Shown: piece by piece, positions 1,400 through 63,184 of the stretch | How positions within the stretch are numbered: position 1 is the stretch's first letter | Layout of the letters: the number at the start of each line of letters is the position of its first letter | Source: Cetorhinus maximus | Taxonomy: Eukaryota | NCBI RefSeq assembly: GCF_964194155.1 | Contig: NC_135901.1 | Coordinates: forward strand, 21,266,001 to 21,330,000 | Length of the DNA: 64,000 bases | Direction of reading: 5' to 3' | The notes under the pieces: generated by a model | What the model was told of the DNA's origin: nothing | Database searches by the model: none | What the model saw: only the letters and a program-made list of their open reading frames with translations | Program-made: the position numbers and the translations under genes

Positions 1400-1995
1400 T
1401 CTGTCAGAATGAACATGGTTCAGTCCTGGATGTGATTATCAGCAGCAATATCAGCAGAATCAAACTCCTTGTGGACTCATTGGTGTCTCAGCAGGTGGGA
1501 CGACTGAGTGAATCCTTTCCCACACTTGGAGCAGAGGAATGGCCTCTCCCCAGTGTGAACTTGATGGTGTCTCTACAAGGTGGATGAACGACTGAATCTC
1601 TTCCCACACGTGGAGCAGGTGAATGGTCTCTCCTCAGTGTGAACCTGCTGGTGTGTCAGATGCTGAGATGACGTAGTGAATCCCTTCCCATACATGGAAC
1701 AGACAAAAGGTTTCTCTCCAGTGTGAACACGCTTGTGTTCAGCAAGTTGGGATGACAAGTGAATCCCTTTCCACACTCAGAGCAGGTGAATGGCCTCTCC
1801 CCCAGGAGCACACGTAGTTGTTCAGTGAGGCTGGGTGAACACCTGAATCTCTTCCCACACTCAGGGCAGGTAAACAGCCTCTCCCCAGTGTGCACACGTA
1901 AGTGTTTTGTGAGGTGTGTTGAAGACCTGAATCTCTTCTCATACTTGGAGCAGGTGAACGGTCTCTCTCCTGTGTGAAGTCCCCGATGTTGAATT
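1400..1995 (-). pseudogene. C2H2 zinc-finger pseudogene (unit A), frameshifted, 5' end replaced by a LINE tail
   Basis: TGERPF-C-x2-C repeats split across ORFs 1656..2180 and 1573..1776; degenerate Cys/His; cluster-type 3' UTR motif at 1400-1465. Confidence 0.85.
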
Positions 1996-2185
1996 AAAAG
2001 TGAAGGAACGACAATATATTTCCAAGTCAGGATGGTGAGTGACTTGGAGGGGAACTTCCAGGTGGTGGTGTTCCCACCTATTTGCTGCCTTTGTCCTTCT
2101 AGATGGTTGTGGTCGTGGGTTTGGAACATGCTGTCGAAGGAGCCTTGGTAAATTACTTGGTCTCCTTGTAGATTGTACACATTGT
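1996..2185 (-). mobile_element. HER1-type LINE 3' region fragment
   Basis: Matches the 3' part of the LINE at 22400-22600 ('ccaccacctggaagttcccctccaag...ccatcctgacttggaaatat'). Confidence 0.7.
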
Positions 2186-3448
2186 TATGGATAGCAAGCA
2201 GGTTACGGGTGTTCCACAGGGAGCAATGCTGGGACCACTGTTATTCACAATTTACATAAATGATTTGGACCCAGAAATTGAAGCTCCAATTTTAAAATTT
2301 GAGAGCAGAATTACAGTAAATCACTGATAAGAATTCCCAATCAACAAAACTTTGTAGCATAGTTCATTAAATCTTTAATTCTGTTGCTGCCTGAACAAGG
2401 ACACAAGGACCTGATGCAGTTAATACTGAGCAAGACTGCAGCAAAATCCTTGGATCTAAAATGCACACATGAATAAAACAGGGAGTTCCTGGAAACATGC
2501 TGCAGGTTCTTCATTACCTGGAGATCAAATGTCTGTTGTATAATTGTCCCAGCAGTTAACACGATCTTGTGAACTTTTGCATGTGTTATTTTAATACAAG
2601 CTTTAAACTATATATTTGAACTGAATTTTATTATGTTAAAGATGCTATATCAATACAAGTTGTTGCTGATGTTGGCTTAAAGTGGTAGATTCAGGACTGT
2701 CACTAAAATATCTTTAAAACTTCACAGGATAATCACAGTCACTTTTAAACTGGAAACTTAATCCTGGTGTTTAAGTTTCAGTGAAGGATAGAGCACAGTT
2801 TTACACAGATCTCTGATTTAACAGCATATTTCCAGTCTGCTGACTCAGGTTGAACAGCCACAGTTGTAAAGGAACCTTCTGCTCTGTGCCTAGGAGCTTT
2901 GAACCATGATGGTTACAAACCAGAAATCAGAGGGTTAGATTTACAGGGAGTTTGTATTTTTCCATCCATTTTCCTATGTAGCCTTGGACTCCACGCAGCC
3001 TGACCTTGGTCATCTTTAGGCTGTACGTACTGCACAGAAGTGGCTGTGACACATTTCTTGCACACCTCAGGATTAATCCACATGTGGGTTTTGCTGTCAG
3101 TGAAGAGAAATGAGTAAGGCCAAAGTGCCATTTGTCCCTCTCAGCGTGACCCTGAAGGACTGTGTCCAGGCTGAAGTTCTGTTCCTGCCGTATGATCCTC
3201 CCCCAGATTGTCTTTTCTGAGCTCCAACCAGGTGATGTTAAACACTCAAGTGGGAAGGATAAAAATCTACAGCAATGTGTTCAAAACAAAGCTTGACATG
3301 CTATTCGACATCTATACAAAATATTAACCAGCAGCCCAATTATATGGTCCATTAAAATCTGCAGAAACAAACCCAACTGTCAGAATGAAAGAATTCAATC
3401 CTGAACATGATTAACAGCAGCAAAAAATGCAGAATCCAACCCCTACAG

Positions 3449-4318
3449 TCACTTGTGAATTCGCTGGTGCGTCAGCCAGGAGCCTGACTGAGTGAATCCC
3501 TTCCCACACATGGAGCAGGTGAATGGTCTCTCCCCAGTGTGAACTCGTTGGTGTATCAGCAGATCCTTTCTACTTTTAAATGTCTTCTCACAGTCAGAAC
3601 ATTCAAAACGTCTCTGATCAGTATGAACAAGTTGATGTGTCAGAAGGTGCGATGACCGAGTGAATCCCTTTCCACACATCGAACATGTGAATGGCCTCTC
3701 GCCAGTGTGAACTCGCTGGTGTGTCAGCAGGTCAGAGGAATTGGTGAATCCCTTCCCACACATGGAGCAGGTGAATGGCCTCTCCCCAGTGTGAATTCGC
3801 TGGTGTGTCAGTAGTTTGGATGGTCGATTAAATCCCTTGCCACAGATAAAGCAGGTGTATGGACTTTCCCCAGTGTGAATGCGTTGGTGTTTCAGAAGCC
3901 TAGACAATCGATTAAATCCCTCCCCACACAAGGAACAGATGAACAGACTCTCCCTCGTGTGAATTCGCTGGTGTGTCAGCAGGTAGGATGACTGAGTAAA
4001 CCCCTTCCCACAAATGGAGCAGGTGAATGGCCTCTCTCCACTGTGAGTTTGCTGGTGCCTCAGAAAGTTTGATGAATGACTGATTGCCTTCCCACACACG
4101 GAGCAGATGACTGAACTCTGCTCAGTGTGAATGTGCTGGTGTCTCAGAAGGTTGGATGAATGAGTGAATCCCTTCCCACACACGGAGCAGGTGAACGGCC
4201 TCTCCCCAGTGTGACTGCGTTGATGAATTTCCAGCTTTGATGGGGAACCAAATCCCTTCCCACAGTCCGCACATTTCCATGGTTTCTCCATGGTGCCGGT
4301 GTCCTCGTGGCTGTCCAT
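3449..4318 (-). CDS. C2H2 zinc-finger protein (unit B), 10 tandem fingers, no effector domain
   Basis: 289-aa ORF with 10 C-x2-C-x12-H-x3-H repeats and TGERP linkers; splice acceptor at ~4533; conserved 3' UTR follows the stop. Confidence 0.9.
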   Translation of the reverse strand: MDSHEDTGTMEKPWKCADCGKGFGSPSKLEIHQRSHTGERPFTCSVCGKGFTHSSNLLRHQHIHTEQSSVICSVCGKAISHSSNFLRHQQTHSGERPFTCSICGKGFTQSSYLLTHQRIHTRESLFICSLCGEGFNRLSRLLKHQRIHTGESPYTCFICGKGFNRPSKLLTHQRIHTGERPFTCSMCGKGFTNSSDLLTHQRVHTGERPFTCSMCGKGFTRSSHLLTHQLVHTDQRRFECSDCEKTFKSRKDLLIHQRVHTGERPFTCSMCGKGFTQSGSWLTHQRIHK

Positions 4319-61745: not shown

Positions 61746-62031
61746 TGAAGGACATTAGTGAACCAGTTGGGTTTTTCGACAATCCAGCAGTTTTCATGGT
61801 CACTTTCTCCTTGTGCCAGCCCCATAAATGACCAGATTCATTCAGCTCAGTTTCACAACCTGCCTTTGTGTTTTTGTAGGTTCTCTGTCACTCACTTTTT
61901 CTGTTTTAAATCAATTTCACAGGGTATTAGAAGGAGAGGATTTGCAGTCGGGAAACTCAAACCAAACATCACATCAGAATCTGACCGAGTCGCCCAATTT
62001 ATCATAACCTGAATGTCATTGAATTTTGAAC

Positions 62032-62985
62032 ATGGAAGGAAAAAGCACCATTCACAGTGGGGAGAAACCGTACACGTGTTCTGTGTGTGGACGAGGCTTC
62101 AGCCAATCATCTGACCTGTCAGAACATAAATGCCGTCACAAGAGGATGAAACCATGGAAATGTGGGGATTGTGGGAAGGGATTCAAATCCCCGTCTGACC
62201 TGGAAAGTCATTGGCGCACTCACACTGGGGAGAAACCGTTCACCTGCTCCGAGTGTGGGAAGGGATTCATTCAGTCATCCAACCTGCGGACACACCAGCG
62301 AGTTCACACTGAGGACAGACCTTTTAAATGTCCGGACTGCGGGAAGTGCTATAAAGGTTCCATGGAACTGATGCGCCATCAACGTGTTCACACTGACGAG
62401 AGACCATTCAGGTGCTCTCACTGCGGGACTGGGTTCAAGTGGTTGTCTCAACTCACTGCGCACAAGCACAGTCACACTGGGGAGAGGCCGTTCACCTGCT
62501 CTGTGTGTGGGAAGGGATTCACTCAGTCATCCAAACTGCTGAGGCACCAGCATGGGCACAGTGATGAGAGGCCATTCACCTGCTCCATGTATGGGAAGGG
62601 ATTCACTCAGTAATCCCATCTGCTGACACACCAACGAGTTCACACAGACGAGAGACCTTTAAAACGCCCAGACTGTGGGAAGTGTTTTAAAAGCTCCCAG
62701 GACCTGATGTCCCATCAAAGTGTTCACACTGGGGAGAGGCCGTTCAGGTGCTCTCACTGCGGGACTGGGTTGAAGCGACCATCTCAACTCATTGTACACC
62801 AGCGAATCCACATTGGGGAGTGGCTGTTCACCTGCCCTGAGTGTGGGAAGGGTTTTACCCAGTCATCCAACCTGCTGACACACCAGCGAGTTCACACTGG
62901 GGAGAGACCATTTCCTTGCTCTGAATGTAGGAAGGGGTTTGCTTATTTATCCACACTGCAGAGACACCAGCAAGTTCACAAGTAA
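62032..62985 (+). pseudogene. C2H2 zinc-finger unit J, 11 repeats, one in-frame TAA at 62611-62613 (truncated 6-finger protein or pseudogene)
   Basis: ORFs 62026..62613 and 62707..62985 are in the same frame; acceptor AG at 61921-61922; ATG at 62032. Confidence 0.8.
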
Positions 62986-63184
62986 CAACAATGGTTGGAT
63001 TTTGCTGTTAATCACATCCAGGACTGAATTATGTGTATTGGGGTCTGTTTCTGATGATGTTAATAAACTCCAGCCCAGTTATTCGGGCTGATATTGTAGT
63101 TATTAGCTTTGTGTTAAACACACAGCGTCTTGAGTCTTTTCAATATTTCTAACCCAAGTTAGTTCCTTCTGACGTGCTCTCGCT

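Follow-up and report, generated by a model that had tools for sequence, protein, structure and literature searches.

The study of Wells et al. (2023, PMC10547256) reports a correlation between zinc-finger (ZNF) and retroelement counts across animals, and describes the FiNZ-ZNFs, knockdown of which showed repression of transposable elements (TEs). The word 'shark' does not occur in its main text; shark counts are given in the supplement, with ZNF open reading frames (ORFs) numbering 1851 in Carcharodon carcharias, 3586 in Scyliorhinus canicula and, for a ray, 1223 in Amblyraja radiata. As reported in PMC11603059, KRAB-like and FiNZ proteins co-immunoprecipitate with TRIM33, and the whale-shark paper (PMC8455134) reports KRAB-box families as lost in cartilaginous fishes. 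These animals have large, retroelement-rich genomes and tandem ZNF counts among the largest, yet reportedly lack the KRAB-box families. Here we analyse a cluster of tandem C2H2 ZNF genes from the basking shark Cetorhinus maximus, contained in a stretch of 64,000 nucleotides (assembly GCF_964194155.1, contig NC_135901.1, positions 21,266,001 to 21,330,000), hereafter the window.

The interpretation that we regard as somewhat probable is that the cluster belongs to an elasmobranch tandem C2H2 family, in which fingers-only copies turn over and their contact residues diversify. The window would then represent part of a large family of such genes, each with a housekeeping-type promoter driving a putative short non-coding first exon that is spliced to a single finger exon. 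The first 110-360 nt of the finger exon are now 5' untranslated region (UTR), made up of a decayed spacer and sometimes decayed fingers, and the rest encodes 6-17 fingers and very little besides. Segmental duplication and module shuffling generate new copies, most of which decay, and their contact residues would change under diversifying selection. The proteins are most likely sequence-specific DNA binders for fast-changing targets, probably retroelements, and a cofactor may dock on the fingers themselves, the best candidate being a nearly constant first full finger. An initial annotation of the window had described an effector-less, fingers-only cluster directed at TEs; its observation is confirmed, and its interpretation is partly supported.

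A six-frame scan of the window revealed 65 C2H2 patterns in nine arrays, and tblastn added two decayed finger remnants (Table 1). The arrays consist of tandem C2H2 fingers with TGE(K/R)P linkers in a single exon. According to masked self-BLAST and alignments, a promoter block, an acceptor with leader and a 3' end are common to the units (A to J) at about 68-90% identity, and a profile of the leader detected nine full copies (E <= 1.8e-28) and three clear partial ones. About ten units sharing promoter motifs, acceptor/leader and 3' end had been noted initially, and we recover them as nine arrays plus finger-less modules. Four arrays have an open frame, those of B with 10 fingers, D with 9, E with 8 and F with 17. 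The array of G, also called open before, is so only up to its last finger, where a stop directly precedes the last His of finger 7. J and I are truncated, with a stop in finger 7 of 11 in J and six fingers without the 5' end in I, and A, C and H are dead, the first two carrying stops and frameshifts and H being without an array, all as previously called. Besides these units there are D0 and J0, one remnant each of a promoter and of a 3' end, and the two decayed finger patches, while 10 of the 68 finger units in the seven analysed arrays (B, D, E, F, G, I and J) are degenerate. Open, truncated and broken copies thus stand beside remnants, which agrees with the birth-and-death evolution proposed initially, and the clustered birth-and-death pattern that KRAB zinc-finger proteins (KZFPs) typically show is found here as well. 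B, D, E, F, G and J each contain 5-11 Pfam zf-C2H2 stretches, in line with the poly-ZNF definition of Wells et al. (at least five C2H2 domains per ORF).

The units had been ascribed to one modular cassette. The modules are indeed common to the units, but masked self-comparison separates at least three exon types (D/G/J, B/E and F/H/J0), and D and J carry an F/H-type acceptor module in front of a G/J-type exon. The units are therefore shuffled chimeras rather than copies of one cassette.

No effector family (KRAB, SCAN, BTB or other Pfam) was detected in any of the 24 sense frames between promoter and finger exon, even when read through stops; Pfam returned only reverse transcriptase (RT) fragments and sub-threshold matches there. 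In-frame stops occur between the acceptor and the start Met in all six protein-making units (counts per leader codons in Table 1). The open frame ahead of the Met comprises only 9-51 nt, and in D and J it holds no AG. In D, the four stops fall within 36 leader codons, as against none in 261 finger codons (p = 0.0002), and the changes among eight leader copies are spread over the codon positions as 34/48/48. These stops and the distribution of changes indicate that the leader is now 5' UTR. Its majority frame is nearly open (one stop), lies in register with the fingers and has a pN/pS of 0.59, the modal length of 109 nt being found in four of the eight copies; B, E and F, moreover, contain decayed fingers inside their 5' UTRs. 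From this near-open frame and these decayed fingers we infer that the leader is a decayed coding spacer, and it matches no Pfam family. The window units have no N-terminal KRAB upstream in the finger frame and no SCAN, BTB or PR/SET domain ahead of the array. A FiNZ-type N-terminal domain does not appear either, the frame being closed in all six units and no upstream peptide being common to the shark models, although no search with a FiNZ profile was made. The effector-less, fingers-only character of the genes is hence upheld by the 24 frames, the six closed leaders and the shark models, and the profile search for effector domains that had been suggested to check it, run as a Pfam scan of the window frames, found none. 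A conserved exon-1 peptide behind the ATG of the promoter block was considered and rejected, as the frames differ among units and run into stops; the white-shark model P0142 threads a peptide from behind this ATG.

Relatives of the leader were found with its profile in a set of 1.84 billion proteins, giving 36 matches, 32 of them genuine (P0141, P0150, P0153 and P0157 were dropped as repeat-driven artefacts). All 26 named proteins among the genuine matches come from sharks, representing eight species (sawshark, horn shark, zebra shark, two catsharks, smooth-hound, white shark and basking shark), and this supports a shark origin of the cluster and its spread across sharks. A word-based leader search yielded only two candidates and one match. 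In models from sawshark and horn shark both promoter and leader can be made out, and unit J aligns closely with a basking-shark protein. Among the 32 leader-bearing models, 17 have no canonical finger downstream and 15 run on into fingers; no effector Pfam is among the top families listed for them. Where the 24 upstream segments of sufficient length resemble one another or the window, the shared sequence is translated promoter, intron or long interspersed nuclear element DNA in varying frames and strands. A longer-form search gave 297 passing proteins, of which 120 were listed and 17 are chondrichthyan. None of these 17 carries KRAB, SCAN or BTB, unlike many of the tetrapod proteins listed, and 12 of the 17 begin at the array. 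The non-finger segments of 33 proteins, compared by BLAST at the settings used, have only leader, promoter-derived and retroelement sequence in common. A PR-bearing skate match (P0022) has different fingers and no leader match. Many shark models show N-termini from promoter, intron or antisense DNA, or seemingly fused neighbour genes of 900-1500 aa (P0128, P0146, P0147, P0134 and P0176-P0198), and the leader and promoter account for many spurious N-termini in public shark gene models.

The leader resembles an old coding spacer, and two ray models join it to a PxVxL-like peptide, so the family might once have had an effector, now lost or still present in some of its members. In that case the ancestor would have had an upstream coding exon, for instance with a PxVxL peptide, joined through the spacer; functional members elsewhere in the genome would keep it, and the copies in the window would be decoys, competitors or decaying genes. 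PxVxL is an HP1-binding motif. In the stingray and skate models (P0247, residues 167-192; P0250, residues 21-45), 18 of 20 residues around a PRVVL core, which fits the motif, are identical, upstream of the leader homolog and in the finger frame. The modal 109-nt leader, with its near-open frame in finger register, and the 15 models that continue into fingers point in the same direction. This peptide is present in only two of all fetched proteins, however, being absent from a third ray model and having no credible match in the window; an equally strong match between shark models (P0130/P0159, 87%) is translated intron; and the open ORFs of the window are under purifying selection despite their dead leaders. 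We therefore consider a lost or hidden effector fairly unlikely. This ray stretch could be an effector peptide or a translation of non-coding DNA, and the skate N-terminus found one match in the ESM Atlas at 0.78, below the level of a lead.

Selection was analysed on the 68 finger units of the seven arrays, A and C being left out on account of their frameshifts. Of 33 pairs, the 22 nearest inter-gene ones show a difference at helix positions -1, 3 and 6 in 82-86% of cases, compared with 10% at +1 and 11-44% in the linker, so that helix residues do differ among paralogs and linkers are more conserved, as had been noted. Codon models in IQ-TREE gave an omega (dN/dS) of 0.10 for the core and 0.33-0.40 for the linkers, and of 1.74-2.06 for the four contact positions with a shared neutral rate; none of 26 null simulations with a contact omega of 1 reached the latter value. 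In the collinear pair G/J, contact codon positions 1 and 2 show 16/48 differences, the corresponding figures being 6/53 for four-fold sites, 14/164 for the intron, 18/109 for the leader and 50/305 for UTR positions (p = 0.009 versus four-fold sites; p = 0.001 versus the pooled neutral 88/631). These two paralogs have 9 of 24 contact residues in common; an apparent basking-shark ortholog of J, a single case, keeps 15 of 16 over four fingers. Such a pattern is expected if specificity changes after duplication and is then held, and the evidence for it is moderate. The dN/dS check at contact positions suggested earlier gives values above one with the shared rate and in G/J, and values not clearly above one with the own synonymous rate. 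Pairwise estimates (contact dN/dS of 1.6-2.5 with all-site dS and 1.1-1.8 with own dS) were set aside as biased, the pairs having been chosen on non-contact sites.

A mostly neutral birth-and-death would consist of the copying of a self-contained transcribed cassette, with the proteins as tolerated by-products, selection acting only against misfolding and contacts drifting. The dead units A, C, H and I and four dead remnants, the truncated J, the 10 degenerate finger units among 68 and the own-rate contact omega, not clearly above one, are all compatible with this. Against it, the contact positions of G/J lie 2- to 4-fold above every neutral class and the shared-rate omega above all 26 nulls, the apparent J ortholog retains its contact residues, and promoter and leader persist recognisably in the sawshark and horn shark models. 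Largely neutral turnover therefore appears quite unlikely to us.

If no separate effector exists, a cofactor would have to bind the fingers themselves. A W-initiated finger was found 33 times in 38 chondrichthyan proteins, always first or second in its run, with P at +1 in 32, E at +5 in 31 and Y at -1 in 26 of the 33. The combination of W with P at +1 was seen in none of 2421 fingers from 213 proteins of other taxa. This near-constant first finger occurs in both sharks and rays, and four window units (B, E, G and J) have both P+1 and E+5; a PDB search with it returned generic fingers only. The finger (W, Y-1, P+1, E+5) is a candidate for a built-in cofactor-docking module, a lead and not a result. 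Of the two effector-free modes of action originally put forward, finger-mediated recruitment thereby gains a candidate, and pure steric blocking finds no support. A more far-reaching version, with over 1000 effector-free, repeat-recognising ZNFs in sharks, the constant first finger docking a silencing cofactor while the others diversify, and some rays having kept or added a PxVxL peptide, seems doubtful.

The proteins might also be aimed at targets other than TEs, such as satellites, host promoters, other ZNF genes or RNA, and serve as competitors or activators instead of silencers. The window frames hold no repressor domain, and the finger-binding coregulator Zincore is said to have an activating role. 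Diversifying contacts and turnover, on the other hand, resemble those of TE-linked families, and the number of ZNF ORFs tracks that of retroelements across animals in the data of PMC10547256, so that we rate non-TE targets as very unlikely.

Several points weigh against a fingers-only family with diversifying contacts and a docking first finger. The constant finger is not universal, F being without it and D having a generic helix at this place. The queries contained first-finger words, which enriches for that finger, other specialised finger types are likewise of low entropy at -1, and P at +1 also occurs in fingers of the DNA-binding ZFP568. With its own synonymous rate the contact omega is only 1.45-1.52, a value exceeded in two of the 26 nulls, and these nulls were simulated without gene conversion or finger shuffling, both of which can inflate omega. 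Many copies are dead, hence much of the turnover may be neutral. The ray peptide belongs here too. Finally, contigs from four runs of related organisms, presumed to be RNA, extend over the finger exons as well as the stretch behind G, and paralogs swamp them; among the 15 joints listed of 1448 (27750-41100), only finger-to-finger and repeat-to-repeat joints appear. As neither a splice joint nor a transcript start was seen, exon 1 is a prediction. All three samples of these runs supply contigs that span roughly 3 kb past the stop of G (33250-36200) with few differences, possibly a long 3' UTR or else DNA in the libraries.

The unit promoters are CpG-rich and have a common set of motifs, which we take to be YY1-, ZNF143- and NRF1-like. 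Between promoter and acceptor, only 29-88% of each interval is repeated elsewhere in the window, cassette sequence being counted in, and unassigned unique stretches of 130-510 nt are left over; the description of these introns as almost entirely TEs was therefore overstated. At a homologous site of the F and J promoters, two different Penelope-like (GIY-YIG) elements with inverted arms lie about 10 bp apart. Each has its own flanking duplication of 13-14 nt, their arm identities are 92% and 98.6%, the two elements are 79-87% alike, and the H promoter is empty at this site; the insertions hence look independent, and the site is possibly a promoter hotspot. An open, 5'-truncated and young Penelope RT/GIY-YIG frame of 465 codons is located at 54001-55398 on the reverse strand.

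The features of the cluster are collected in Table 1. Beyond these, J contains an internally duplicated block of four fingers (62221-62980, 79% identity), with the premature stop at the start of the second block. The orphan fragment I lies inside an inverted duplicate flank of about 1 kb (44679-47912, 74-94% identity), an arrangement like that left by an inversion with staggered breaks, and a degenerate AT-rich short tandem repeat is present at 42877-43205.

Table 1. Units, promoters and remnants of the ZNF cluster, with positions in the 64,000-nt window
Feature	Positions	Strand	Method
Unit A: broken finger exon (frameshift, stops) and 3' end module; 5' part displaced by repeat at ~1996	1401..1995	-	
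Unit B: ORF of 10 canonical fingers, beginning with MEKPWKC (4291; 4318 is an alternative Met)	3449..4291	-	
Unit B: leader and decayed fingers behind the acceptor (exon begins at 4533); Met frame with 5 stops in 80 codons	4292..4533	-	
CpG-rich promoter between head-to-head B and C, putatively bidirectional; gene model P0146 contains an antisense translation of such a promoter	5001..5600	.	
Unit C: shortened leader behind acceptor; finger exon dead, with degenerate fingers and several stops; 3' end	7081..7930	+	
Unit D: promoter block	10030..10560	+	
D0: F/H-type duplicated acceptor module, without fingers	11622..11820	+	
Unit D: acceptor 14449, 109-nt leader (4 in-frame stops in 36 codons), ORF 14558-15343 (one C2HC and 8 C2H2 fingers)	14449..15343	+	
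E0: promoter remnant	17590..17720	+	
Unit E: promoter block	18180..18700	+	
Unit E: acceptor 19097; 7 stops in the 119 codons of leader plus decayed fingers; ORF 19456-20121, 8 finger units (6 canonical)	19097..20121	+	
Unit F: promoter, interrupted by Penelope-like element 25516-27744	25440..28170	+	
Unit F: acceptor; 6 stops in the 62 codons of leader plus first finger, both decayed; ORF 28891-30402, 17 finger units (15 canonical)	28703..30402	+	
Remnant: end of last finger and 3' end module only	32545..33471	+	
Unit G: acceptor 36869, frameshifted leader (1 stop in 37 codons), ORF 36758-36153, 7 finger units, stop before last His	36090..36869	-	
Unit G: promoter block	37700..37960	-	
Unit H: without an array; has promoter, duplicated acceptor modules, leader and a decayed first finger	40170..41000	-	
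Decayed finger remnant upstream of H promoter	41090..41372	-	tblastn
Unit I: 6 fingers with the 3' end, leader and promoter missing; inverted duplicate sequence on flanks	45712..46280	-	
Decayed finger remnant upstream of J promoter	52786..52990	+	tblastn
F/H-type promoter in front of J, split by Penelope-like insertions 53540-56507 and 56676-57065	53480..57330	+	
J0: H-like acceptor modules and leader, no array	59222..59580	+	
Unit J: acceptor 61923, 109-nt leader (2 stops in 36 codons), ORF 62032-62613 (6 fingers, then stop), 5 more finger units to 62985, 3' end	61923..63297	+	

If these genes are fingers-only and yet evolve like TE sensors, recognition and turnover need no dedicated repressor domain, which would bear on the origin of the KRAB/TRIM28 system and on the role of effector-less ZNFs in other animals. 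The significance rises if the first finger is a docking module, and the constant first finger and the ray peptide offer two specific targets for interaction screens. KRAB-less tandem ZNFs are common. The numbers of shark ZNFs and the loss of KRAB are already known; the near-constant first finger, the ray PxVxL-like peptide and the architecture are new, in that our literature searches, whose coverage left out subscription journals and three supplement files of PMC10547256, found no description of a fingers-only shark ZNF architecture; the word 'zinc' is absent from PMC10620051.

Compared with tetrapod KZFP clusters, the window has the same clustered paralogs, one-exon finger arrays behind a spacer, TGE(K/R)P linkers, birth-and-death and variable contacts, but it lacks a KRAB exon and its spacer is closed by stops. 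With the cyprinid FiNZ-ZNFs and actinopterygian KRAB-like ZNFs, as far as their published descriptions go, it has in common a lineage-specific tandem expansion outside tetrapods and, probably, selection on contact residues. Those proteins possess a short N-terminal domain (28 aa in FiNZ, on its own upstream coding exon), whereas the acceptor in the window lets no upstream exon enter the finger frame. A putative cofactor on the fingers, making a separate effector domain unnecessary, would have parallels in Zincore (QRICH1-SEPHS1), which reportedly binds the fingers of ZFP91-type factors directly, and in POGZ with its HP1-binding finger; these are conserved single-copy factors and not a fast-turnover repertoire. 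The closest counterparts are the shark tandem ZNF ORFs of Wells et al. (2023) and the RefSeq entries named 'zinc finger protein 239-like' and '850-like', which are the same genes in kind; they had been counted or automatically named, and we found no description of their architecture, leader, first finger or selection. Taken together, the cluster evolves like a KZFP or FiNZ cluster but belongs to neither.

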